This document shows positions 1 through 14,144 of a stretch of 14,144 bases of DNA, one piece after another. The DNA lies in the IMG/VR virus record IMGVR_UViG_2657244940_000005, one strand, 5' to 3'. Position numbers and translations under genes: made by a program. The stretch's first letter is position 1, and every line of letters starts with the position of its first letter. A model generated the notes under the pieces. That model did not search any database and had not been told where the DNA came from. It worked only from the letters and a program-made list of their open reading frames with translations. The stretch comes from a virus (taxonomy: Duplodnaviria > Heunggongvirae > Uroviricota > Caudoviricetes).

Positions 1-1
1 G

Positions 2-181
2 GGCGTGGCGCGCGTGGTTGCTGCAATGCAAGACCCCAATCCGCAGGTCGCTGGACGTGGACTTTACCGTCTGCAACAGGCTGGCATTGACGTCAGCCAC
101 GGGCTGATGATGAGTGAAGCTGAGCAATTGAATAAAGGCTTTCTCAAGCGGATGCGCACCGGCTTTCTAATGCGAAAGTAA
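2..181 (+). pseudogene. ribD: 5'-and-3'-truncated fragment of a riboflavin-biosynthesis deaminase (RibD-like, CMP/dCMP deaminase domain)
   Basis: Frame 2 translates to [55 protein letters not shown], which I recognise as the deaminase-domain region of enterobacterial RibD. After RMRTGF (ending at 166) the frame reads LMRK and stops at 179-181, whereas intact RibD continues for about 220 more residues. Identification is from memory of the protein, not a search. Confidence 0.6.
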
Positions 182-440
182 GGCGCGCCGGAAGTGTGCC
201 GTTTGCCTTCTGCCCTGCCAGCAGCTGCGGCAGGATGCGTGTGCGGAACTTGGTCATACCGTTGAGCGCGATAGACAGCAGTTGATGCTTGATGTACGGG
301 TTACGGAAACGTCCGGTGACTGCACTGGCGAAAGACTCCAGCTCATCGCGTGGCAAATCCAGTACCGGAATAATATCTAGAAGAACGCCGGGCAAGGGCT
401 GAAGCAATGGCAGCTCGCCTTGATAGCCTGGCGTGTCATA
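168..440 (-). pseudogene. Internal fragment of an unplaced gene on the minus strand, inside six-frame ORF 144..503
   Basis: The middle of the 119-aa minus ORF (…[69 protein letters not shown]) has ordinary globular-protein composition. Its last 7 residues plus stop are just the reverse complement of the ribD fragment, and its first ~40 residues look non-protein-like. It feels like a sugar-acid or polyol dehydrogenase C-terminal region (possibly UxaB-like), but I cannot confirm that from memory. Boundaries are approximate. Confidence 0.3.
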
Positions 441-531
441 TAACATCCCGCCAGCTAAACCACGTCGAAGCGGCAGAACTGCTGCGTGTGAATGCTGAAG
501 CAATCCAGAACGAAGCGCAGGAGATCCACTG
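407..531 (+). CDS. Small hypothetical protein (41 aa), first visible gene of the rightward early operon
   Basis: ATG at 407 preceded by AAGGG; translates to [41 protein letters not shown]. Its TGA stop (529-531) abuts the ATG of the zinc-finger gene at 532 (TGATG). Below the ORF-track size cutoff. Its 5' part overlaps the minus ORF 144..503, so both cannot be real. Confidence 0.35.
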
Positions 532-759
532 ATGGCTGATGCAATGGATCTCGTACAGCAGCGCGTTGAAGAAGAACGCCAGCGTCATATCCGTGCTGCC
601 CGCGCCAAAACGCCGGGCGTGTCCCGCGTGCTTTGCATTGAGTGTGAAGCAGCAATTCCGCCAGCACGCCGCCGTGCCATTCCTGGAGTGCAGCTTTGCA
701 TTACCTGCCAGGAAATCGCAGAGCTGAAAGGCAAACATTACAACGGAGGTGCTGTATGA
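532..759 (+). CDS. DksA/TraR-family C4-type zinc-finger protein (phage early protein)
   Basis: 75 aa with CIEC…(17 aa)…CITC, the CxxC-N17-CxxC arrangement of TraR/DksA zinc fingers; such genes sit upstream of gene A in P2/186-like phages. The stop overlaps the Dam start (ATGA at 756-759). Confidence 0.8.
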
Positions 760-1613
760 GCACCATCCTGAAATGGGCGGGAAATAAAACTGCCATTATG
801 TCCGAACTGAAAAAACACCTTCCTGCTGGCCCGCGACTGGTTGAACCTTTCGCGGGTTCCTGTGCTGTGATGATGGAGACGGATTACCCCAGCTATCTTG
901 TTGCGGATATTAATCCTGATTTAATCAACCTCTATAAAAAGGTTGCTGCTGATTGTGAGGCGTTTATATCTCGTGCCAGAGCTTTATTTGAGGAAGCAAA
1001 CAGGGAGGTGGCTTATTACAACATAAGGCAGGAGTTTAATTACTCCACTGAAATTACTGATTTCATGAAAGCGATATATTTTCTGTATCTCAATCGTCAT
1101 GGTTACCGTGGGTTATGTCGCTATAACAAGAGCGGGTATTTCAACATTCCCTACGGTAATTATAAAAATCCGTATTTCCCTGAAAAAGAAATTCGCGCAT
1201 TTGCAGAGAAAGCCCAGCGGGCAACGTTTATCTGCGCCAGCTTTGATGAAACGCTGGCGATGTTGAAGGCGGGGGATGTGGTGTATTGCGATCCGCCGTA
1301 TGACGGTACGTTTTCCGGCTATCACACTGATGGTTTCACTGAAGATGACCAGTATCACCTGGCATCCGTTCTTGAACATCGGTCATCAGAAGGACATCCG
1401 GTCATTGTTTCTAACAGTGACACATCCCTGATCCGTTCGCTGTATCGCAATTTTACTCACCACTACATCAAGGCAAAACGCAGCATCGGCGTAGCAGCTG
1501 GTGAGAGTAAATCTGCAACAGAAATCATCGCTGTTTCTGGGGCGCGCTGCTGGGTGGGATTTGATCCTTCGCGTGGCGTGGATAGTTCTGCCGTGTATGG
1601 AGTGCGTGCATGA
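756..1613 (+). CDS. dam: Dam-type N6-adenine DNA methyltransferase (D12 class)
   Basis: ATG at 756 with GGAGG 6 nt upstream; N-terminal SAM-binding motif ([11 protein letters not shown]) and catalytic DPPY motif ([12 protein letters not shown]) in the order typical of Dam-family enzymes. The six-frame ORF begins at 696, but the RBS-supported start is 756. The stop overlaps the A start (ATGA at 1610-1613). Confidence 0.9.
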
Positions 1614-4024
1614 GCCATGCTGATATGAACAACTGCAGCGGCTTTAACGAGGCCGCCGCAGCATTCTCATGGAACAGCCCGAAAAAGGCTATTAACCCTT
1701 ATCTGGACCCGGCGGAAGTTGCGCCGGTTTCTGCGCTTTCAAACCTGATCACTCTGTACGCTGCCGATAACGAGCAGGAACAACTGCGCCGCGAGGCACT
1801 GAGTGATCAGGTCTGGGAGCGTTATTTCTTTAATGCATCCCGTGATCCTGTCCAGCGCGAAATGGAGCAGGATAAGCTCATTAGCCGGGCAAAGCTGGCG
1901 CATGAGCAGCAGCGTTTTAATCCGGACATGGTCATACTGGCGGACGTTAACGCCCAGCCTTCCCATATCAGCAAGCCGCTGATGCAACGTATTGAATACT
2001 TCAGCAGCCTGGGCAGGCCAAAGGCTTATTCCCGCTATTTGCGTGAGACGATTAAGCCATGTCTGGAACGACTGGAGCATGTACGCGACAGTCAGCTATC
2101 CACTTCTTTTCGCTTTATGGCAAGCCATGAAGGGCTGGACGGCCTGCTGATCTTGCCTGAAATGAGTCAGGATCAGGTGAAACGCCTGTCTACTCTTGTC
2201 GCTGCGCATATGAGTATGTGTCTTGATGCCGCTTGTGGTGATTTGTATGCCACCGATGATGTTAAGCCAGAAGAAATCCGCAAGACATGGGAAAAGGTGG
2301 CAGCAGAAACCCTGCGACTGGATGTCATACCGCCTGCGTTTGAGCAACTCCGCCGGAAAAGAAACCGCCGTAAACCCGTACCCTATGAACTCATTCCGGG
2401 TTCGCTGGCGCGTATGTTGTGCGCCGACTGGTGGTATCGGAAATTGTGGAAGATGCGTTGTGAATGGCGGGAAGAGCAGTTGCGTGCTGTTTGCCTGGTC
2501 AGCAAAAAAGCATCTCCCTATGTCAGCTATGAAGCCGTGATGCATAAACGTGAGCAGCGCCGTAAGTCGCTGGAGTTTTTCCGTTCTCATGAACTGGTGA
2601 ACGAAGACGGCGACACGCTGGACATGGAGGATGTGGTAAACGCCAGCAGCAGCAACCCTGCGCATCGCCGCAATGAGATGATGGCCTGTGTTAAAGGTCT
2701 GGAGCTTATCGCGGAAATGCGCGGTGACTGCGCCGTTTTCTACACCATCACCTGTCCGTCACGTTTCCATTCCACGCTAAATAACGGCAGGCCCAACCCG
2801 ACCTGGACAAATGCGACGGTAAGACAAAGCAGTGATTATCTGGTCGGCATGTTTGCTGCATTTCGTAAGGCGATGCACAAAGCCGGATTGCGCTGGTATG
2901 GCGTGCGGGTGGCTGAGCCGCATCATGACGGCACAGTTCACTGGCACCTGTTGTGTTTCATGCGCAAAAAAGACCGCCGCGCCATTACTGCATTGTTGCG
3001 TAAGTTTGCTATCCGTGAAGACCGCGAGGAGCTGGGTAATAACACGGGGCCACGCTTTAAGTCTGAGCTGATAAACCCGCGCAAAGGAACGCCGACTAGC
3101 TACATCGCGAAATACATCAGTAAGAACATTGACGGGCGTGGTCTGGCTGGCGAGATCAGCAAGGAAACGGGTAAATCTCTGCGTGATAACGCTGAATACG
3201 TTAATGCCTGGGCGTCTCTGCATCGTGTTCAGCAATTCCGCTTCTTTGGCATTCCGGGGCGTCAGGCTTACCGTGAACTGCGATTGCTGGCTGGTCAGGC
3301 GGCAAGGCAACAGGGTGACAAAAAAGCAGGTGCGCCGGTACTGGATAACCCGCGCCTTGATGCCATTCTGGCTGCAGCTGATGCTGGTTGTTTTGCCACC
3401 TACATCATGAAGCAGGGCGGCGTACTGGTTCCCCGTAAATATCACCTCATCAGAACCGCTTATGAAATCAACGAAGAGCCGACCGCCTATGGCGATCACG
3501 GCATTCGTATTTATGGCATCTGGTCACCCATTGCAGAGGGTAAGATCTGCACTCATGCAGTGAAGTGGAAAATGGTTCGTAAGGCCGTTGACGTTCAGGA
3601 GGCGGCAGCCGACCAGGGCGCTTGCGCCCCTTGGACTCGTGGCAATAACTGTCCCCTTGCTGAAAATTTGAACCAACAAGGGAAAGACAAATCAGCTGAT
3701 GGGGATACCAGAACGGATATCACCCGCATGGATGACAAGGAGTTGCACGATTACCTGCACAGTATGAGCAAAAAAGAGCGCCGGGAACTGGCAGCAAGAT
3801 TACGCCTGGTTAAACCGAAACGGCGTAAAGACTACAAACAGCGAATTACAGAGTATCAGCGTCAGCAGCTCGTCTATGAACTGAAGTCCAGAGGATTTGA
3901 TGGCAGCGAGAAAGAGGTCAATTTGCTCCTTCGCGGCGGCAGTATTCCGTCAGGAGCAGGCCTGCGTATCTTCTATCGGAACCAGCGTTTGCAGGAAGAT
4001 GATCAGTGGCGGAACCTGTATTAA
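1610..4024 (+). CDS. A: Replication initiation endonuclease, P2 gpA family (rolling-circle HUH relaxase)
   Basis: 804 aa; HUH-type motif (VHWHLL) and paired active-site tyrosines ([14 protein letters not shown]) characteristic of P2 A / phiX174-type Rep proteins; GGAG 7 nt upstream of the ATG; position and size match P2 gene A (761 aa as I recall). Confidence 0.92.
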
Positions 4025-4177
4025 TTACGCGGGTTAACAATTCGTGCTATTAATAATACCAGGCATATCAGGCTGATGAACGTAAAAAAACGTTTTACAT
4101 CAGTAAGATTATTATATACTGTAAATATAAACAGTGGTTATACATATAGTATTGCGTGTGGTGTCATAGGAGGAAAG
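4025..4177 (+). promoter_or_regulatory. AT-rich intergenic region, putative promoter for the cargo genes
   Basis: Sharp drop in GC content immediately after the A stop (ttaattacgcgggttaacaattcgtgctattaataatacc…), a TTTACA hexamer at 4094-4099 and several TATA-like hexamers downstream. The exact -35/-10 pairing is not resolved by eye. Confidence 0.3.
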
Positions 4178-4366
4178 ATGCAGGACTATTTTTTGGAGTC
4201 TTTGAAGCTCCAGCGCATTGATTTTTTTCTTAAGCTTGTAGCGGCTAGTGAGTGTAGTGATGAAGAGAAGGGGCTGGCTCTGCAGTGGGTTTCTGAATTG
4301 ACTGATGAACTCATGGCAAAAATCAGAACCCACGAATACAACCGCTCAATGGATGTCATCAGCTGA
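4178..4366 (+). CDS. Hypothetical small protein (62 aa), probably helical, in the accessory locus
   Basis: ATG at 4178 with a perfect AGGAGG 4 nt upstream; MQDYFLESLKLQRIDFFLKLVAASECSDEEKGLALQWVSELTDELMAKIRTHEYNRSMDVIS. No family recognised. The longer six-frame ORF from 4076 lacks an RBS. Confidence 0.55.
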   Translation: MQDYFLESLKLQRIDFFLKLVAASECSDEEKGLALQWVSELTDELMAKIRTHEYNRSMDVIS

Positions 4367-4376
4367 GGTGACTTTT

Positions 4377-4610
4377 ATGCGCATTGAAATAATGATCGAT
4401 AAAGAGCAGAAGATTAGCCAGTCTACCCTGGACGCCCTTGAATCCGAGCTTTACCGCAATCTGCGCCCCCTGTATCCCAAAACGGTAATTCGCATTCGCA
4501 AAGGTAGCTCTAACGGTGTGGAACTAACCGGACTGCAACTGGACGAAGAAAGAAAACAAGTGATGAAAATTATGCAGAAGGTGTGGGAAGACGACAGCTG
4601 GCTGCATTAA
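4377..4610 (+). CDS. DinI-family protein (SOS/RecA-modulator-like)
   Basis: ATG at 4377 with GAGG upstream; MRIEIMIDKEQKISQSTLDALESELYRNLRPLYPKTVIRIRKGSS…KIMQKVWEDDSWLH resembles E. coli DinI (MRIEVTIAK…, acidic C-terminal helix with conserved W). Confidence 0.75.
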   Translation: MRIEIMIDKEQKISQSTLDALESELYRNLRPLYPKTVIRIRKGSSNGVELTGLQLDEERKQVMKIMQKVWEDDSWLH

Positions 4611-4745
4611 GAAACGTTGCTGGCGTCTGAACTTGCTTCTGGCGTCAGCAAGGTTGAACAACGAGCCCTTGCGAGGCGTTAGCTCTGTAGTGCATGTCTA
4701 TGCCGCATGAGATCGCATGATCGTTTGAGGATCGTTTTTGCTAAG

Positions 4746-4770
4746 GCCCGCCAGAACTGGCGGGCTTTTG
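4746..4770 (+). terminator. Rho-independent terminator candidate closing the rightward early/cargo transcript
   Basis: Perfect inverted repeat GCCCGCCAG / CTGGCGGGC (4746-4765) followed by TTTT (4766-4769). Confidence 0.55.
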
Positions 4771-4814
4771 CGTAGATCATGCAGGTGCATGAAAACCACT
4801 ACATAAAGCGGGCA

Positions 4815-4833
4815 GGCGTAGCGGGGATACGAG
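4815..4833. other. Candidate cos (cohesive-end) core, tentative
   Basis: GGCGTAGCGGGGATACGAG shares the GGCG-GCGGGGA core with the 19-nt P2/186 cos sequences as I remember them (GGCGAGGCGGGGAAAGCAC and GGCGTGGCGGGGAAAGCAT), and lies between the end of the A-side genes and the 3' end of Q, where cos sits in P2. The reference sequences are recalled, not checked. Confidence 0.2.
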
Positions 4834-4919
4834 CGCGCGCAACGGGGTGAAATGGTGAAAATCCGGCGCAATCTCCGGCACGCTGGCGGCTTCAATTGGT
4901 GAGGGTGGGGGAGCGGCAG

Positions 4920-4956
4920 AAAAAAAGAAGCGCCCCGCAGAATGCTGCTGGGGCGC
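4920..4956 (-). terminator. Rho-independent terminator candidate downstream of portal gene Q
   Basis: GC-rich hairpin GCGCCCCGCAG…CTGCTGGGGCGC (4930-4956) followed on the minus strand by a T-run (plus-strand AAAAAAA at 4920-4926); lies 3' of the Q stop at 4992. Confidence 0.55.
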
Positions 4957-4991
4957 TGTGAGGGGTAGTCTTGTTGTCGTGGTGCGGTGGG

Positions 4992-6047
4992 TCAGTCGTT
5001 GCGCTTGTCTTCTGTCAGTCCCAGCGTGTACGGCTCAAAGCGGATCACTTCTTCTCCAAGCCAGTCGTTAAGCTCCTGCAGTCGCTTCTGCAGCGGCATC
5101 AGCTCGTTGCGGACAAAGACGCGGCTGGCCTTTTCCACATCACCAAAGCCGCCGGTATTGTTGGGAATAATGCCCATCATCTGCGGCGGTACGCGGTGCG
5201 CTGCCATCATGTCATCGCGGCTCACGTTCTTGATGTTCAGAAACTCATCCTTTGCCGCAACCTCCGATAACGGGATGATCTGGATGCCGTCCTTTTTACC
5301 GTTGGGTGAGTACATAAACAGGTTACGGAAGTTGCCCGGCCCTTTGGCGCTTTTCATTGCCTGGCGGATATTGTTCACGTCCTCCTGATTCTGTGCTGCG
5401 TCGGTCATGTACATGATGAAACCCGCATGGCTGCCGTTGATGTAATACTTCCGGCGGAACAGCGTTGCGGACTCGTTGAGCAGGGTTGACGGGATGGCGG
5501 AGAGATAGCCGGGCAGCCCGTAAATCTCCTGGTTAATATCCGGCTCCAGCAGATGAAAGATGTTGCCCTGCGTAAATTCATAGGGCTGCGTGGTCAGGCC
5601 ATACTGCACAAACCAGTAGGTGTCGAGGTCCACGCCACGGCGTGTGTACTTCGCCAGTGCTGGCTCCAGTGAGAGAACGCCGCCGAGCCGGTTGGTGCGC
5701 TTTTCCAGATAGGCGTTACCGAACACCAGATAGTCCTGTACGAAACGGGCAAAAGCCTGCTGGCTGAGCAGGCGGTGCGGGATGTAGGTACTGCTGAGAA
5801 TGTCACGCTTAACGGCAATCGGTGAGCTGTGATGCACGGCGGCGCGATAGGTCCGCGCCAGTCCGTCAAAGCTCACCGGCGGCTCATACCAGCGGTCCAT
5901 CTGCACGCATTCCACGTAGTCCAGCAATTCGCGTCGGTCTAACACCGGCACCGGGTCGCCAAAGCTAAACGCCTCTGCCGCAGCGCCGCCAGATTCTGCG
6001 TTGTGATCCACCGCTGCGCGGTTGTTCTTGTTTTTACGTTTGCTCAT
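4992..6047 (-). CDS. Q: Portal protein, P2 gpQ family
   Basis: 351 aa, similar in size to P2 Q (344 aa), and positioned immediately downstream of the terminase ATPase region on the leftward strand. Its ATG overlaps the stop of the upstream gene (ATGA at 6044-6047). Confidence 0.9.
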   Translation of the reverse strand: MSKRKNKNNRAAVDHNAESGGAAAEAFSFGDPVPVLDRRELLDYVECVQMDRWYEPPVSFDGLARTYRAAVHHSSPIAVKRDILSSTYIPHRLLSQQAFARFVQDYLVFGNAYLEKRTNRLGGVLSLEPALAKYTRRGVDLDTYWFVQYGLTTQPYEFTQGNIFHLLEPDINQEIYGLPGYLSAIPSTLLNESATLFRRKYYINGSHAGFIMYMTDAAQNQEDVNNIRQAMKSAKGPGNFRNLFMYSPNGKKDGIQIIPLSEVAAKDEFLNIKNVSRDDMMAAHRVPPQMMGIIPNNTGGFGDVEKASRVFVRNELMPLQKRLQELNDWLGEEVIRFEPYTLGLTEDKRND

Positions 6048-6769
6048 GCCGCCTGCTCCTTGTCAGCCTGGGGCCATTCGCACATAAACAGCATTTTCCA
6101 GTCCTCCGGTGATAATTCTTTTTTCATGTCATTCAGCCATTCATCATCAAAGAGCGCGGCTCCGGTTGCGAGCGTAGCCCCGGATGCTGCAGCGTCATCA
6201 GCGGTAAAGGTCATGCAGGTAGTGCTGTTGCGGGCGATCAGATTCTTGTATTCCTGCCATGCTTCCGGGCTGGGGCTTGGGGTGGTGTAGTAGGTAGCGT
6301 GATAGCGCGCGTGCATGGACAGGCTTTTGGCGAGCGCAATCATATTTTTGGGGGAGTCAGCCCAGGCATACTCTGACACGTAGACGTTTCCATGGAGCGC
6401 GGCGGCGAGACTTTCCGGCCCGATAAAATAAATGACCGCACCGTTTGGGAGTTCCAGATGCGCTTTACCTGATTTTATTTTCCCAAGATGCGTCCAGGCT
6501 GCTGCCTCACTTAAAAAAGCTGATATATAGGTTTTGACGGTCAGGGCTGATGCCGGGGTGCAGCCCAGAAAAATCTGGTTGCGTCCGGTGTGCAGTGCAT
6601 CGTTCAGGGCTTCGTAGGCGAAAAAGAAATCCGCGCCAGCCTGACGCATTTTTGTAAGCACGCGGTTTCTGCTGCGTGCGCCACTGTTCCATTCATGCTG
6701 GTAAGCAAAGAAAGGGCGATCTACAGGCAGGCTGGCGGTGGTCATGAGGTTAGTTGGGGTTGAGTGCAT
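6044..6769 (-). CDS. Standalone terminase-ATPase-domain paralog (241 aa), an extra gene between P and Q
   Basis: Aligns over its whole length with the central ATPase core of the adjacent P protein: [50 protein letters not shown] against [55 protein letters not shown], HGN-Y-(D/S)EY-W, TPS, LFD and MCE(W/F) are conserved; by-eye identity is roughly a third. It lacks P's N-terminal ~135 aa and the entire C-terminal nuclease domain. Walker-B-like LYLDEY of P is VYVSEY here. The start overlaps the P stop (TGATG at 6767-6771) and the stop overlaps the Q start. Confidence 0.7.
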   Translation of the reverse strand: [241 protein letters not shown]

Positions 6770-8535
6770 CAGAAAATCTCCACAATGTTGCTGGTATTGG
6801 CGGCTTCGCCCTGCAGCGGTTCGTTAAACAGTGCGTGCATCGTTGCCCAGGCCAAATCTGCGTGGCTGGCTTCTTCGCTGCGGCTGGCTTCATAGGTAGG
6901 GCGGTTGCCGCTGGCTGTAGTGGCGCGACGGATAGCCATAAAGGATTGCGCAATGTCGGTGTGCCCGGCGTCAAACTCCAGACGGCGGTGGCTGATAATG
7001 TCGTATGCCTTGAGCACCAGTGCGTTTTTGACGTTGGGGTTGTAGACAAACTCCCGCACCGCAGGAAAGAACGCTTTCACGTTCTCGTAGACACCGTGAC
7101 CAACGCCGGTCGAGTCGATGCCGATATATGTCACGTTGTACTGCTGCGTCAGTTTTTTAATGGCATCAGCCTGGGCGCGGAAGTCCATTCCGCGCCACTG
7201 GTGACGCTCAAGAATGCGGAACTTACCACCTGGCACGGCTGGCGGTGCCACCACCACGCATCCGGCGCTGTCGCCGTTCTGCGTACCTTTTGCCGGGTCA
7301 TAACCGATCCACACTTCGCGCCAGCCAAACGGGCGCAGCGCCAGTGCATGAAAGTCGGTCCAGACTTCCCAGCTGTCTACCATGCACGCCTGCAGCTCGC
7401 TGAGCGGGAATACGGACGCGAGATCGTCCACGAACTCACACATCAGCAGATTCTGGTATTCGTCCGGGCTGTACTCCATGCGCAACTGGTCAAGGTCGAA
7501 CAGGTTACATCCGCCGCGCACCGCATCTTCCACAGTGACTATCTGGCGGTACTGCCCGTCTGCGCACAGCAGGCCGGGGGCCAGATTGCTGTGGGACAGG
7601 TCGATGTCCACCTTATCGGCTTTGTTGCGCCCTCGGTTGAACAGCGCACCGGACCAGAACGGATAAGCACTGTGTGTCAGGCTGGATGGCGTGGAAAAAT
7701 AGGTCTGTCGCCATTTTTTGTGAATAGCCATACCGGAAGCCACTTTGCGCAGCTCCTGGAATTTCGGTATCCAGAAATATTCATCCAGATACAGGTTGCC
7801 GTGGTAACTCTGGGCCGTGCGGGCATTGGTGCCGAGGAAGTAAAGCGTGGCCCCGTTAGGAAGCACCATCGGATCACCTTTCAGCTCCACCTCGACTTCA
7901 TTGGCGAAATCGATGATGTACTGCTTAAAGACGTGAGCCTGTGCCTTACTGGCAGAAAGGAAAATCTGGTTACGTCCGGTAAGCAGGGCGTCAATCAGGG
8001 CCTCACGGGCAAAATAGAAGGTCGCGCCGATCTGGCGTGACTTTAGCAGGTTGCGGATGCGGTTGGTTTTTCCGGCTTCCCACCAGTGGCGCTGGTAGTT
8101 AAACATGGAGGAATGGAAAATTTCTTCCAGCTTCTCAATTTGTTCATCGGTGAAAACATTCTTTTCCGGCTGACGGCGCGGGCCTTTGTTACGGTTGGCG
8201 ACGTTAGGGTTTAAGTCGGCTTCGTTGCCGCCATTGTTAAACTTGCCGATCCGCGCGTGGCGTTCCGACTGGCGCGCCAGCAGGTCAATTTCTTTGAAAT
8301 CTTTCCCTTCTTTGTGCTCCTTCATAATGAGCTGGCAGTAGCGTGCGGCGGTGGTGAGCTGCATCTGATCCAGCGGCCCATAGTCACCCCACTTGTCGCG
8401 TTTTTTCCAGCTGTGAACGGTTGCAACTTTCTCGCCCAGCATTTCAGCAATGCGGGCTACGCGGTATCCCTGAAAGTACAGCAGCATGGCCTGCCGACGG
8501 GGATCGAGATCTGCGGGTGTCAGTGTGGTGTTCAT
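6769..8535 (-). CDS. P: Terminase large (ATPase) subunit, P2 gpP family
   Basis: 588 aa versus 590 aa for P2 P; deviant Walker A of the lambda gpA type (LKSRQIGATF), Walker B (LYLDEY), and a C-terminal nuclease-domain-length extension. Confidence 0.92.
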   Translation of the reverse strand: MNTTLTPADLDPRRQAMLLYFQGYRVARIAEMLGEKVATVHSWKKRDKWGDYGPLDQMQLTTAARYCQLIMKEHKEGKDFKEIDLLARQSERHARIGKFNNGGNEADLNPNVANRNKGPRRQPEKNVFTDEQIEKLEEIFHSSMFNYQRHWWEAGKTNRIRNLLKSRQIGATFYFAREALIDALLTGRNQIFLSASKAQAHVFKQYIIDFANEVEVELKGDPMVLPNGATLYFLGTNARTAQSYHGNLYLDEYFWIPKFQELRKVASGMAIHKKWRQTYFSTPSSLTHSAYPFWSGALFNRGRNKADKVDIDLSHSNLAPGLLCADGQYRQIVTVEDAVRGGCNLFDLDQLRMEYSPDEYQNLLMCEFVDDLASVFPLSELQACMVDSWEVWTDFHALALRPFGWREVWIGYDPAKGTQNGDSAGCVVVAPPAVPGGKFRILERHQWRGMDFRAQADAIKKLTQQYNVTYIGIDSTGVGHGVYENVKAFFPAVREFVYNPNVKNALVLKAYDIISHRRLEFDAGHTDIAQSFMAIRRATTASGNRPTYEASRSEEASHADLAWATMHALFNEPLQGEAANTSNIVEIF

Positions 8536-8581
8536 GGCACAAACCTACAGCCTTGAATGAAGGCTTTCCCCGCCTGCGGTT

Positions 8582-8599
8582 TGTGTGGTTGTCGGTACA
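8582..8599. promoter_or_regulatory. TGT-N12-ACA dyad, candidate Ogr/Delta-type late-promoter activator site for the O operon
   Basis: TGTgtggttgtcggtACA in the P/O divergent intergenic region. The dyad centre lies about 88 bp upstream of the O ATG (8678), compatible with the -55 placement of P2 late-promoter dyads plus a ~30-nt leader. Confidence 0.45.
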
Positions 8600-8677
8600 A
8601 ATACCGCGCATTGTTTCACTGCCCCCATCACCGCAACCATAAGGCTCCAGTAAGTTTTTTCTAACGGAGCACGGCTC

Positions 8678-9511
8678 ATGACAGTGAAAGCAAAGCGTTT
8701 TCGCATCGGGGTGGAAGGTGCCACCACCGACGGACGCGAAATCCAGCGTGAATGGCTGGAACAGATGGCAGCCAGCTACAACCCGGCGGTTTACACCGCG
8801 CTGATTAACCTTGAGCACATCAAGTCTTATCTGCCGGACAGCACCTTTAACCGCTACGGCAAAGTGACGGCGCTGTTTGCTGAAGAAATCACGGAAGGTC
8901 CGCTGGCAGGCAAGATGGCGCTGTATGCCGACGTTGAGCCCACGGAGTCCCTGGTGGAGCTGGTGAAAAAAGGCCAGAAATTATTCACCTCTATGGAAGT
9001 CAGCCCGAAGTTCGCTGATACGGGCAAAGCCTACCTGGTCGGCCTGGCTGCCACTGATGACCCTGCCAGTCTGGGCACTGAAATGCTGACATTCAGCGCC
9101 AGTGCAGCCCATAACCCGCTGGCAAACCGCAAGCAGAATCCCGCCAATCTTTTTACCGCTGCAGAGGAAACGGTGATCGAACTGGAAGAAATCCAGGATG
9201 ACAAACCGTCCCTGTTTGCCCGTGTCACGGCGCTGTTCACCAAAAAAGAGCAGTCCGATGACGCCCGGTTCTCTGATGTGCATAAGGCCGTGGAACTGGT
9301 CGCCACTGAGCAGCAGAACCTGAGTGCGCGCACCGAAAAATCCCTGTCTGAGCAGGAAGAACGCCTGTCTGAGCTGGAGACTGCCCTGCAGGCACAGCAG
9401 ACCGCCTTTAACGAACTGGTGGACAAGCTGAGCCAAGAAGACAGCCGCCAGGACTACCGCCAGCGTGCAACAGGCGGTAACGCCCCCGCTGACACTCTGA
9501 CCAATTGCTGA
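8678..9511 (+). CDS. O: Capsid scaffolding protein, P2 gpO family
   Basis: 277 aa (P2 O is 284 aa as I recall), first gene of the rightward late operon, GGAG RBS; coiled-coil-rich C-terminal half (…LSEQEERLSELETALQAQQTAFNELVDKL…). Confidence 0.88.
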   Translation: MTVKAKRFRIGVEGATTDGREIQREWLEQMAASYNPAVYTALINLEHIKSYLPDSTFNRYGKVTALFAEEITEGPLAGKMALYADVEPTESLVELVKKGQKLFTSMEVSPKFADTGKAYLVGLAATDDPASLGTEMLTFSASAAHNPLANRKQNPANLFTAAEETVIELEEIQDDKPSLFARVTALFTKKEQSDDARFSDVHKAVELVATEQQNLSARTEKSLSEQEERLSELETALQAQQTAFNELVDKLSQEDSRQDYRQRATGGNAPADTLTNC

Positions 9512-9527
9512 TGGAGCACAAAACCTG

Positions 9528-10586
9528 ATGAAGAAGAATACCCGCTTTGCTTTTAACGCTTACCTGCAGCAACTGGCGCGTCTGAACGGTGTGGCAGTTG
9601 AAGAACTGTCCAGCAAGTTCACCGTAGAGCCGTCCGTGCAGCAGACATTGGAAGACCAGATCCAGCAATCCGCCGCTTTCCTGACGCTGATTAACGTCAC
9701 GCCAGTGACTGAGCAGTCCGGTCAGCTGCTGGGGTTGGGAGTTGGCAGCACCATTGCCGGAACCACTGATACCACCGCGAAAGAGCGTGAACCTGTCGAT
9801 CCGACGCTGATGGTCGATGTGGAATATAAATGCGAGCAGACCAACTTTGACACGGTACTGACCTACGCGAAGCTGGACCTGTGGGCGAAGTTTCAGGATT
9901 TTCAGGTGCGTATCCGTGACGCCATCGTGAAACGTCAGGCACTGGACCGCATCATGATCGGCTTTAACGGCGTGAAGCGTGCGAAAACCTCCAACCGTAG
10001 CGAAAACCCGTTACTGCAGGATGTGAATAAAGGCTGGCTGCAGAAAATCCGTGAGGATGCACCGGATCACGTCATGGGCAGCACCACCACGGGCGGTGAA
10101 ACCACACCGGGTGCGGTGAAAGTCGGGAAAGGTGGCGAATATGCCAACCTGGACGCCGTGGTGATGGATGCCGTTAATGAGCTTATCGACGTGGTCTATC
10201 AGGACGATGACGATCTGGTGGTGATTTGCGGTCGTGAACTGCTGTCTGACAAGTATTTCCCGCTGGTCAACAAAGAGCAGGAAAACAGTGAAAAACTGGC
10301 TGCCGATATGATCATCAGTCAGAAACGCATGGGTGGCCTGCAGGCCGTGCGTGCGCCGTTCTTCCCGCCGAATGCGCTGCTGATCACCCGTCTGGATAAC
10401 CTGTCCATCTACTGGCAGGAAGACACCCGCCGCCGTTCAGTTATCGACAACCCGAAACGTGACCGGATTGAAAACTTTGAATCCGTTAACGAAGCCTATG
10501 TGGTTGAGGACTACCGCTGCGCCGCACTGGTGGAAAACATCCAGATTGGTGATTTCAGCGCCGCCGCAGCCGAAACCGGAGCGTAA
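9528..10586 (+). CDS. N: Major capsid protein, P2 gpN family
   Basis: 352 aa; near-colinear with remembered P2 N (…TRFAFNAYL…KFTVEPSV…GKGGEYANLDA…ISQKR…LSIY…VVEDY…GDFS…). Confidence 0.93.
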   Translation: MKKNTRFAFNAYLQQLARLNGVAVEELSSKFTVEPSVQQTLEDQIQQSAAFLTLINVTPVTEQSGQLLGLGVGSTIAGTTDTTAKEREPVDPTLMVDVEYKCEQTNFDTVLTYAKLDLWAKFQDFQVRIRDAIVKRQALDRIMIGFNGVKRAKTSNRSENPLLQDVNKGWLQKIREDAPDHVMGSTTTGGETTPGAVKVGKGGEYANLDAVVMDAVNELIDVVYQDDDDLVVICGRELLSDKYFPLVNKEQENSEKLAADMIISQKRMGGLQAVRAPFFPPNALLITRLDNLSIYWQEDTRRRSVIDNPKRDRIENFESVNEAYVVEDYRCAALVENIQIGDFSAAAAETGA

Positions 10587-10589
10587 TCC

Positions 10590-11240
10590 ATGAGCCTGAG
10601 TCCCGCACGGCAGCATCGCCTGCGCGTTCAGGCTGAACAGGCCGCCCGCGAGGGCGGCAGTGTTCGCCACGCATCGGGCTATGACCTGATGCTGCTGCAA
10701 CTGGCGGAAGACCGCCGCCGTCTCAAGGGCGTTCAGTCCACGGTCAAAAAAGCGGAAATCAAGGTGGAGCTGCTGCCGAAGTACGCCGCCTGGGCAGAGG
10801 GTGTCCTGGCTGCCGGAGGCGCTCAACAGGATGACGTGCTGATGTACGTGATGCTGTGGCGCATTGATGCTGGAGATTATGCCGGAGCGCTGGAGATCGG
10901 GCGTCATGCCCTGCGTCATGGCTGGGTGATGCCGCTGGGTAACCGCAACGTGCAGACCGTGCTGGCAGAGGAAATGGCAGACGCCGCGCAGAGCGCAATG
11001 CTTGCCACCACCGGCTTTGATGCCGATCTGTTGCTGCAGACGCTGGAGCTGACAGACGGTCTGGATATGCCGGACCAGTCACGGGCGCGTCTGCATAAAG
11101 CGATTGGCGCGGTCCTGAGTGAAAGCAATCCGGCGTCTGCCCTTAATCATCTCAACCATGCGTTACAGCTCGATCCCCGCTGTGGCGTGAAAAAAGACAA
11201 ACAGCAGCTGGAGCGCAGACTGCGCAATGACAGCCGCTGA
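10590..11240 (+). CDS. M: Terminase small (endonuclease) subunit, P2 gpM family
   Basis: 216 aa; matches remembered P2 M (…AQQDDVLMYVMLWRIDAGDYAGALEI…LELTDGLDMPD…); starts 4 nt after the N stop. Confidence 0.88.
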   Translation: MSLSPARQHRLRVQAEQAAREGGSVRHASGYDLMLLQLAEDRRRLKGVQSTVKKAEIKVELLPKYAAWAEGVLAAGGAQQDDVLMYVMLWRIDAGDYAGALEIGRHALRHGWVMPLGNRNVQTVLAEEMADAAQSAMLATTGFDADLLLQTLELTDGLDMPDQSRARLHKAIGAVLSESNPASALNHLNHALQLDPRCGVKKDKQQLERRLRNDSR

Positions 11241-11335
11241 CAGAACGTGCCCCCGCGCACGGGCGGCACGGGGTGGCGAAAGGCACTGCCACATCAAAAC
11301 CCCGTCCACCGCCCTCTATTTCAGGAGAAAGCAGC

Positions 11336-11800
11336 ATGAAGTTTGTTGCGCCAGAACAGGCACCGGAACAGGCGGAAATCATCAGAAATACGCCGTTCTG
11401 GCCTGATGTGGACCTGTCGGAGTTTCGCAGTGTCATGCGCACTGACGGCACGGTGACGCAGCCGCGTTTAAAGCAGGTTGCGCTGTCGGCAATTTCGGAG
11501 GTCAACGCAGAGCTGTATGAGTTTCGCAGACGCCAGCAGATGCTGGGGTATGCCTCGCTGGCAGAGGTTCCGGCGGAACAGCTGGACGGCAAAAGTGAGC
11601 GCATTCAGCACTATTTCAACGCGGTTTACTGCTGGGCACGCGCCATGCTCAACGAACGTTACCAGGACTATGACGCCACGGCATCCGGTGTGAAGCGGGG
11701 CGAGGAACTGGCGGAAGCCAGCGGTGATTTATGGCGTGACGCCCGCTGGGCCATCAGCCGGGTACAGGACGCGCCGCACTGCACAGTGGAGCTTATCTGA
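11336..11800 (+). CDS. L: Head completion/stabilisation protein, P2 gpL family
   Basis: ATG at 11336 with AGGAGA upstream (154 aa); the six-frame ORF from 11273 begins at a GTG with no RBS. Position after M and before X matches P2. Confidence 0.82.
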   Translation: MKFVAPEQAPEQAEIIRNTPFWPDVDLSEFRSVMRTDGTVTQPRLKQVALSAISEVNAELYEFRRRQQMLGYASLAEVPAEQLDGKSERIQHYFNAVYCWARAMLNERYQDYDATASGVKRGEELAEASGDLWRDARWAISRVQDAPHCTVELI

Positions 11801-12003
11801 TGAAAGTGCGTGCGCATCAGTATGACACGGTGGACGCGCTTTGCTGGCGTCATTACGGGCGCACGCAGGGTGTCACGGAGCAGGTACTGAAGGCAAATCC
11901 GGGGCTTGCCGAATATGGCCCCTTTTTACCTCACGGGCTGCAGGTGGAGCTGCCGGACATTCCGACAACCACCACCGTGCAGACCGTCCAGCTATGGGAC
12001 TGA
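11800..12003 (+). CDS. X: Tail protein X, P2 gpX family (LysM-like)
   Basis: 67 aa, the same length as P2 X; ATGA overlap with the L stop. Confidence 0.8.
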   Translation: MKVRAHQYDTVDALCWRHYGRTQGVTEQVLKANPGLAEYGPFLPHGLQVELPDIPTTTTVQTVQLWD

Positions 12004-12006
12004 ATT

Positions 12007-12222
12007 ATGACGCTTGAGCGAATCAGCGCCTTTATCACGTATTGCATCGCCGTCGTGCTGGCCTGGCTGGGCGATTTGTCCATCAAGGATGCCTCAACGC
12101 TGGGCGGCCTGATGATCGGTGTGCTGATGCTGGCTATCAACTGGTACTACAAACACAAAGCCTACCAGCTTCTGCGCGACGGGCAGATCACGCGGGAGGA
12201 CTATGAATCCATCAATCGTTAA
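12007..12222 (+). CDS. Holin, small two-TMD type (pinholin-like)
   Basis: 71 aa with two hydrophobic segments (ISAFITYCIAVVLAWLG and LGGLMIGVLMLAINWYY) and a charged C-terminus; sits immediately upstream of the endolysin. Confidence 0.78.
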   Translation: MTLERISAFITYCIAVVLAWLGDLSIKDASTLGGLMIGVLMLAINWYYKHKAYQLLRDGQITREDYESINR

Positions 12223-12715
12223 ACGCTGCCTTGTCGGGACCGTGCTGGCTATTGCTGCCACGCTGCCGGGTTTTCAGCAGCTTCACACCTCCGTGGAAGG
12301 ACTGAAACTGATTGCCGATTACGAAGGCTGTCGTCTGCAGCCGTATCAGTGCAGCGCGGGTGTATGGACTGACGGCATTGGTAATACGTCGGGCGTCATT
12401 CCCGGCAAAACCATTACGGAACGACAGGCAGCAGAAGGGCTTATCTCCAACGTGCTGCGTGTGGAGCGGGCGCTGGAAAGATGTGTGAAGCAACAGCCGC
12501 CACAAAAGGTGTATGACTCGGTGGTGTCGTTTGCCTTCAACGTGGGGACAGGCAATGCCTGCAGCTCCACGCTGGTGAAATTGCTCAATCAGCGGCGCTG
12601 GGCGGATGCGTGCCGACAGTTGCCGCGCTGGGTTTATGTAAAAGGTGTGTTTAATCAGGGGCTGGATAACCGCCGTGCGCGGGAGATGGCCTGGTGTTTA
12701 CAGGGAGCAAACTGA
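12203..12715 (+). CDS. K: Endolysin, phage lysozyme (GH24) family, P2 gpK position; possible N-terminal SAR segment
   Basis: 170 aa; lysozyme signature DYEGCRLQPY…GVWTDGIGNT; N-terminal Gly/Ala-rich hydrophobic stretch (CLVGTVLAIAATLPG); the start overlaps the last 20 nt of the holin gene. Confidence 0.88.
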   Translation: MNPSIVKRCLVGTVLAIAATLPGFQQLHTSVEGLKLIADYEGCRLQPYQCSAGVWTDGIGNTSGVIPGKTITERQAAEGLISNVLRVERALERCVKQQPPQKVYDSVVSFAFNVGTGNACSSTLVKLLNQRRWADACRQLPRWVYVKGVFNQGLDNRRAREMAWCLQGAN

Positions 12716-12717
12716 AA

Positions 12718-13094
12718 TGAAAAAGAAATTAATCAGCGGACTGTTTCTGATGTTATGGATGGCGTTGTTAATCGCAGCAATGGTGTATCCGCAGGGGATT
12801 TTTCCGGTACTGGCAGCGTCCGGCGTTTGGGTAGCCTGTTTGCTGACATGGGCGGTAATTCCGGTAGCACTGGCTGCGTTAATTAATAATAGCCCGCTCT
12901 GGCAGGAGTTAAGGGCATCTTTGCTGAAGACAATTACCCGAAAAGAAAACGTATTTATCAGTTGGGTGATGCGATTGCTGATTGTCGTAAGTCTCGCCTG
13001 GACGGGGTGGGCTATTACCCTGGTCTTTTATCTGCTGACCGTTATTGCCTTCTGGATCACCCGTAATCAGATGGCGCAACAGGTAGCAGCATGA
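12718..13094 (+). CDS. lysA: LysA-like integral membrane lysis-accessory protein
   Basis: ATG at 12718 (MKKKLISGLF…), 125 aa with multiple predicted TM helices; follows K as in P2. The six-frame ORF from 12645 overlaps K and lacks an RBS. Confidence 0.7.
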
Positions 13095-13519
13095 ACCGGT
13101 TGCTGCTGGTTGTGCTGGCGTTATTACTGGCGGCGCTGGGCTGGCAGACGTGGCGGCTGGCTGATGCCAGCCAGACCATCAGCACGCAGTCAGACGAGCT
13201 GCAGAGCAAAAGCCAGACACTGGCAAAGAGCAACAGCCAGCTTATTAGCCTGTCCATTCTGACTGAAACCAATAACCGGGAGCAGGCGCGGCTCTATGCC
13301 GAAGCAGAACAGACCAGCGCGCTGCTGAGACAACGACAACACCGGATCGAGGAGCTGAAACGTGAGAACGAGGATTTACGCCGCTGGGCTGATACTCCTT
13401 TGCCTGCTGACATTATCCGGCTGCGGGAACGTCCGACACTCACCGGAGGTGCAGCTTACCGTCAGTGGTTGTCCGCGAGTGACGCCGTGTCGGCTGGAGC
13501 AGGCAACGCCGCGCACTAA
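13091..13519 (+). CDS. lysB: LysB-like i-spanin (Rz-like)
   Basis: 142 aa; N-terminal TM anchor (LLLVVLALLLAALGW) followed by a coiled-coil-rich periplasmic region; ATGA overlap with the lysA stop. Confidence 0.75.
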   Translation: MNRLLLVVLALLLAALGWQTWRLADASQTISTQSDELQSKSQTLAKSNSQLISLSILTETNNREQARLYAEAEQTSALLRQRQHRIEELKRENEDLRRWADTPLPADIIRLRERPTLTGGAAYRQWLSASDAVSAGAGNAAH

Positions 13520-13652
13520 CGGTGATCTGGACGCGTTGCTGGATGAAACGGAGGCCGCCTGGGCGGTCTGTGCAGACAAAGTGGACATGATTATTGCGTG
13601 TCAGGAGCGAAACAGTGAACAAACCACAATCCCTGCGCCACGCCCTCAATAA
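13362..13652 (+). CDS. lysC: LysC-like o-spanin (Rz1-like outer-membrane lipoprotein), partly embedded in lysB
   Basis: Alternate frame overlapping the 3' end of lysB; lipoprotein signal with lipobox LLTLSGC; probable GTG start. Pro-rich C-terminus. Confidence 0.65.
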   Translation: MRTRIYAAGLILLCLLTLSGCGNVRHSPEVQLTVSGCPRVTPCRLEQATPRTNGDLDALLDETEAAWAVCADKVDMIIACQERNSEQTTIPAPRPQ

Positions 13653-14046
13653 AGCGGTGCCTTATGTCCGCAATAACCCGGACAAACTGCATCTGTTTGT
13701 GGATAACGGTTCGCTGGTTGCCACGGGGGCCAGCTCCATGTCGTGGGAGTACCGTTACACCCTGAACGCGGTGATTGAGGATTTCAGCGGCGACCAGAAT
13801 CTGCTGATGGCCCCGGTTTTGCTGTGGCTGAGGGATAACCAGCCCGATGCCATCAATAACCCGGCGTTACGGGAAAAACTATTCACCTTTGAGGTGGATA
13901 TTCTGCGCAACGATGTCTGTGATATCAGCCTGAACCTGCAACTGACGGAACGTGTGCTGGTCAGCACTGACGGCAGTGTGTCGAGTGTTGAAGCTGTAGC
14001 GGAACCCGATGAACCTGAAGAAATGTGGACGGTGAAACGTGGCTGA
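13615..14046 (+). CDS. R: Tail completion protein, P2 gpR family
   Basis: GTG at 13615 with AGGAG 7 nt upstream (VNKPQSLRHALNK…); the six-frame ORF from 13594 uses a TTG; position after lysC as in P2. Confidence 0.8.
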   Translation: MNKPQSLRHALNKAVPYVRNNPDKLHLFVDNGSLVATGASSMSWEYRYTLNAVIEDFSGDQNLLMAPVLLWLRDNQPDAINNPALREKLFTFEVDILRNDVCDISLNLQLTERVLVSTDGSVSSVEAVAEPDEPEEMWTVKRG

Positions 14047-14144
14047 ACTGCAGAAGGTGGACGACTGGCTGAGTGCTTTGCTGGCGAATCTGGAGCCAGC
14101 CGCCAGAAGCCGCATGATGCGCCAGCTGGCGCAGGAACTGCGCC
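14039..14144 (+). CDS. S: Tail completion protein, P2 gpS family, N-terminal part only (runs off the window)
   Basis: Open frame from GTG at 14039 (VAELQKVDDWLSALLANLEPAARSRMMRQLAQELR…) overlapping the R stop; assignment is by gene order. The start codon is uncertain. Confidence 0.5.
   Translation, partial: MAELQKVDDWLSALLANLEPAARSRMMRQLAQELR

Follow-up and report, generated by a model that had tools for sequence, protein, structure and literature searches.

A ribD/uxaB/prophage mosaic at the edge of a 186-type prophage contig of Escherichia coli is most likely a chimeric contig end

Prophages of the coliphage 186 type, which belong to the P2 family (Peduoviridae), are found in Escherichia coli at rcdA/ybjJ, and the element adjoins these genes in the annotated relatives F829 and TUM2820. 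The order of genes in the relatives is int, CI, a small regulator, CII, Fil, DUF5347, DUF2732, TraR/DksA, Dam and A, followed by the P2-type late genes. Two other known phenomena are relevant when such an element is found next to pieces of host genes. One is the class of chimeric draft-contig ends of short-read assemblies, which arise when extension, scaffolding or gap filling brings a chimeric library insert into a contig. Such ends occupy a terminal position, combine pieces of read or insert size from distant loci, carry ambiguous bases at the joint and form a unique structure whose relatives are intact. The other is alternative end joining, which in E. coli reportedly makes use of microhomology.

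We have analyzed a stretch of 14,144 bases, hereafter the window, which is the entire draft E. coli contig CDRA01000260.1 of assembly GCA_000947375.1, as identified by an exact match of its 804-residue A protein. The contig is numbered 260, which means that the WGS set of this assembly runs to 260 or higher. A literature search found no paper naming the assembly, the WGS prefix or the run accession. From position 380 onward the window shares the gene content and order of the 186-type prophages at rcdA/ybjJ. Unlike these, it lacks the int-CI-CII-Fil-DUF5347 arm, the contig stopping in the middle of a gene, and the hotspot between A and the portal gene is nearly empty. The first-pass annotation, made from the letters alone, had described the left edge as a mosaic; sequence comparison agreed with this and identified all three parts, namely a ribD piece, an inverted uxaB piece and a prophage cut inside DUF2732 (Table 1). 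The mosaic makes up the terminal 379 bases of the contig, and every base from 1 to 380 could be assigned to ribD, uxaB or the phage, save positions 373, 375 and 379, which are N in the deposited record.

Table 1. Coordinates of the parts and joints of the window, with the comparison on which each assignment is based
Feature	Position	Strand	Basis
Internal ribD fragment	1..167	+	100% identity to ribD of Nissle 1917, ATCC 25922 and others
Joint 1, ribD/uxaB	167	.	Three-way comparison of window, ribD and uxaB
Internal uxaB fragment (tagaturonate reductase), gene nt about 973-1180	168..374	-	Identity to uxaB; Pfam Mannitol_dh_C
Joint 2, uxaB/phage	373..380	.	Deposited AATANTNTCTNGAAG; window compared with the record and both parents
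DUF2732 gene, 3' part, first 77-81 nt missing	380..532	+	Aligned to intact copies L002, L125 and L126
186/P2-family prophage, remainder	532..14144	+	Collinear with relatives up to the last base of the contig

The ribD piece corresponds to nt 273-439 of the gene, that is, to RibD residues 92-146, and is of the type carried by phylogroup-B2-type E. coli such as Nissle 1917. The earlier reading that the window opens inside a truncated RibD was thus correct. The frame continues past 167 for only four foreign codons (LMRK) before a stop, whereas native ribD continues past the breakpoint as ...GGCTTTCCTTATATT. On its other side the piece leaves the contig at the left end. As ribD belongs to the essential genes of E. 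coli (Keio collection), truncation of the sole copy would not be viable, and a truncated ribD could only be an extra copy.

The DNA that follows matched uxaB on the minus strand in more than 5,400 E. coli genomes (megablast; 211 of 212 bases at window 167-378, gene nt 969-1180), in inverted orientation relative to the ribD piece, and its translation matched Pfam Mannitol_dh_C with an E-value of 1.4e-17. The minus-strand open reading frame at 144-503 is uxaB only to about 378, the remainder being chance read-through. Thus, the protein-like frame that had been proposed on the opposite strand at 168-440 does contain a gene fragment, now recognized as uxaB, but the homology ends at about 378. Beyond the two limits of the fragment, native uxaB continues as ...GCCGCTAATGCG and ...AATAATTTCTTCGTAG. 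An AscI site at 184-191 was considered as a cloning mark and rejected, being native to uxaB.

Phage DNA begins at 376-380, 77-81 nt into the DUF2732 gene, and everything to the left of codon 27 of this gene is missing from the window; the native phage sequence beyond the breakpoint is ...GCTCGTCTGGAAG. The early operon had been placed as starting at around 400-530. The open reading frame found there (407-532, 41 codons) is instead the C-terminal half of DUF2732, since it starts at the internal Met37 of a 77-residue protein and matches the Pfam DUF2732 model at positions 36-75 of 75. Downstream, the genes are those for TraR/DksA, a Dam methylase, the replication endonuclease A, a DinI-like protein, portal, a terminase-N paralogue, terminase, scaffold and capsid, and then for small terminase, head completion, tail X, holin, lysozyme, LysA/B/C and gpR. 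The Pfam search of each gene in 380-14144 returned a Phage_GPA replication endonuclease together with P2-type capsid and lysis genes, and the portal and terminase genes diverge from the scaffold/capsid/small-terminase module. About 930 complete E. coli genomes contain prophages that are collinear with the whole of 376-14144 and 95-99% identical to it. These comparisons place the DNA from 380 onward in the P2 family, as an ordinary member of the 186 type. Neither int nor repressor genes occur in the window, as the first-pass annotation had remarked. It had referred to the int, C, cox and B genes that normally lie to the left of A in a P2-type prophage; the early region of this phage is of the 186 type (CI, CII, Fil) and not of the P2 type with C, cox and B.

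The two joints differ in character. At joint 1, a single base (C167) is common to ribD and uxaB, and there is no filler, repeat or ambiguous base. At joint 2, the window reads AATAAT-A-TCT-A-GAAGAAC, where TCT (376-378) is common to uxaB and the phage. We have compared the window base by base with the deposited contig and found three differences in 14,024 bases, all of them at joint 2: positions 373, 375 and 379 are A in the window and N in CDRA01000260.1, which reads GGAATANTNTCTNGAAGAACG. The record has no other N up to base 14,024. The three sit within 7 bases, and in that register uxaB and the phage differ at all three. The preparation of the window seems to convert N into A, and other windows may share this problem. 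Here, the rewriting masked the record's own warning at the uxaB/phage joint and gave rise to an XbaI site that is false.

The false site invites the reading that the junction was engineered or cloned, with TCTAGA (376-381) introduced by a primer. In the window, this hexamer does span the joint, and the A at 375 and at 379 is neither the uxaB nor the phage base. Moreover, the string TCTAGAAGAACGCCGGGCAAGG, which carries the A variant at 379, was present in 0 viral contigs, while the G variant was present in at least 120, so that the A is not a natural variant of the phage. Yet the record reads TCTNGA, the site arising only from the rewriting of N into A, and the window is free of vector, marker and scar sequences. 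We have therefore rejected an engineered junction, which is extremely unlikely.

We have searched for either joint in other sequences. Megablast of window 1-800 gave matches in all 5,426 complete E. coli genomes, and the matched parts lay apart in each of them; no single place spanned either joint, and in none of these genomes did one place cover at least 80% of the query. A joint-spanning record was likewise absent from the phage collection and from plasmids (megablast), and exact string scans did not find the joint strings in viral, species-representative or metagenome contigs. The source contig is the only one on record in which the uxaB piece adjoins the truncated, 41-residue DUF2732 product, and the only other contig with this product simply begins at that point.

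Two further assemblies carry the same prophage, namely JAAGYL010000024.1 (L125, 75 kb) and contig 17 of the Logan assembly of ERR738810 (L126, 52 kb). Over 376-14024, L126 differs from the window at one position, the N position 379, and L125 at two, 379 and one further base. Both run uninterrupted through the DUF2732 breakpoint into a left arm with int, CI, CII, Fil, DUF5347 and a full DUF2732. Across 2,224 bases the two arms have the same sequence (100% identity), and in L125 the full arm is seen up to int, adjoining rcdA/ybjJ. The left-arm DUF5347 allele had no 100% identical cluster representative, the best reaching 97-98%. The gene calls differ between L125 7867-8163 and L126 1458-1682, which are the same DNA (100% identical); one gave a 98-residue Fil-family product and the other a 74-residue product, a difference of annotation and not of sequence.

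The intact relatives bear on the possibility that the left edge is a genuine boundary between prophage and host, either a degraded attL, an insertion among gene remnants or a scar that deleted the DNA from int to DUF2732. Such a reading would account for the absence of int, CI and the early promoter region from the window. It is at odds with the habit of this phage family, which integrates at rcdA/ybjJ with int at the boundary. ribD and uxaB are far apart on the chromosome, and they neighbor neither rcdA/ybjJ nor each other, so that the flanks are not those of the usual site. A single deletion cannot put an inverted 212-base uxaB piece between ribD and the phage, and the essential nature of ribD also speaks against it. 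Nor did the window contain an att core repeat or a tRNA, in addition to its lack of int, which agrees with the earlier statement that this is not a clean attL. The same description had favored a deletion scar or the insertion of a prophage among remnants of genes. Against this stand the mosaic's place at the very end of the contig, the N at the joint, the intact relatives and the unique joints. We consider a boundary or scar very unlikely, and the probability that it shares with the engineered junction is very small. A mobile element as the cause found no sign either, as direct or inverted repeats of at least 12 bases were absent from 1-1200, and neither an IS end, an att core nor vector sequence was seen in 1-380, the bases of which, apart from the three N, are explained by the three parents. 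The base composition showed no step at either joint.

By comparison, the features listed for chimeric draft-contig ends are largely those of the window. The mosaic is terminal, the ribD and uxaB pieces (167 and 212 bases) are each about the size of a read or of a library insert and come from distant loci, the structure had no second instance in the collections searched, and in L125 and L126 the prophage is uninterrupted at the breakpoint. Ambiguous bases are present at joint 2 (373, 375 and 379); their absence at joint 1 is unlike what would be expected of such ends. Taken together, the sequence comparisons indicate that the left 379 bases are very probably chimeric DNA that was added to a short-read draft contig at its end, and not chromosome. 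The ribD and uxaB pieces would then be spurious, and the left edge as a whole is most likely not real biology. That a truncated RibD abuts an opposite-strand fragment, with no clean attL, stood up to comparison; its interpretation as a scar or insertion did not, and assembly chimerism, which the first-pass annotation had itself raised as a caveat, is the likeliest answer.

A chimeric contig end could have arisen in the following steps. A chimeric library molecule or read would first have joined ribD to uxaB, giving rise to a small sequence of low coverage. An assembler, scaffolder, gap-filler or consensus step would then have added this ribD-uxaB sequence to the end of the phage contig, and the N at 373, 375 and 379 may represent conflicting reads at joint 2 that were written as N. 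Misassembly of a k-mer graph through a shared repeat was considered for joint 1 and ruled out, the parents sharing only 1 base there; with so little in common, a physically chimeric molecule is required. The real prophage of the isolate would run to the left through DUF5347, Fil, CII, CI and int to rcdA/ybjJ, like its near-identical relatives. The contig probably broke at DUF2732 through a branch in the graph, for example one caused by a second related prophage.

Fragmentation of this kind is seen in a sister assembly, whose 2,928-base contig CDQX01000325.1 carries an identical A gene and corresponds to window 1326-4253. The occurrence of the A gene on a 2.9-kb contig indicates that these assemblies fragment within the prophage, and suggests that a second related prophage or another repeat breaks short-read assemblies inside the element. 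Such a prophage or repeat could explain why the contig stops both inside DUF2732 and at 14144. On this reading, the int/repressor arm is missing because the contig broke off.

In principle, the chimeric molecule at joint 1 may instead have originated inside the cell. On this alternative, all or some cells of the isolate would carry a real illegitimate rearrangement, in which end joining of the microhomology type repaired double-strand breaks and captured 212 bases of uxaB as filler between a broken ribD and a 5'-truncated copy of the prophage, while an intact ribD remained elsewhere in the genome. The joints, with 1 and 3 shared bases and without repeats or mobile-element ends, are as end joining leaves them, and joint 1 does demand a physically joined molecule. 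In its 1-3 shared bases and its lack of site-specific or transposase signatures, the window thus resembles the junctions of alternative end joining in E. coli; three pieces, a captured filler and an essential gene as partner would be unusual for them. Such a rearrangement would need at least two joints, the duplication of a ribD segment and of a uxaB segment, and a prophage copy that is either truncated or a second one. Furthermore, the contig stops only 167 bases beyond the joint, N are present at joint 2, none of the collections searched contained another instance of the structure, and two other assemblies carry near-identical prophages in intact form. A rearrangement in all or some cells of the isolate is thus unlikely. 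Its fully specified form, a natural three-piece product with the 212-base uxaB filler between an extra, broken ribD and a DUF2732-truncated 186-like prophage, seems still a little harder to accept. If true, the joint would be a modest curiosity, an instance of end joining with capture of a filler in wild E. coli of clinical or environmental origin.

With a chimeric contig end as the preferred explanation, the main relevance of this locus is to quality control, as windows that consist of whole draft contigs can carry chimeric ends. CDRA01000260.1 allows no inference about the inducibility, the integration history or the defectiveness of the prophage.

Two observations concern the body of the prophage. 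The variable cargo hotspot between the A and portal genes (4024-4992) holds only a 62-residue open reading frame, the DinI-like gene and about 380 non-coding bases; at this place, close relatives carry DarT/macro-domain, SEFIR, AIPR/DUF2971 or reverse transcriptase cargo. In classical P2 and 186, genes Q and P are adjacent. In the window, a 241-residue gene (6044-6769, minus strand) lies between portal and terminase. Its product is paralogous to the N-terminal ATPase domain of the adjoining 588-residue terminase (33% identity, E = 2e-34), matches Pfam Terminase_6N and has no nuclease domain. To our knowledge, classical P2 and 186 lack this paralogue; TUM2820, L125 and L126 have it as well.
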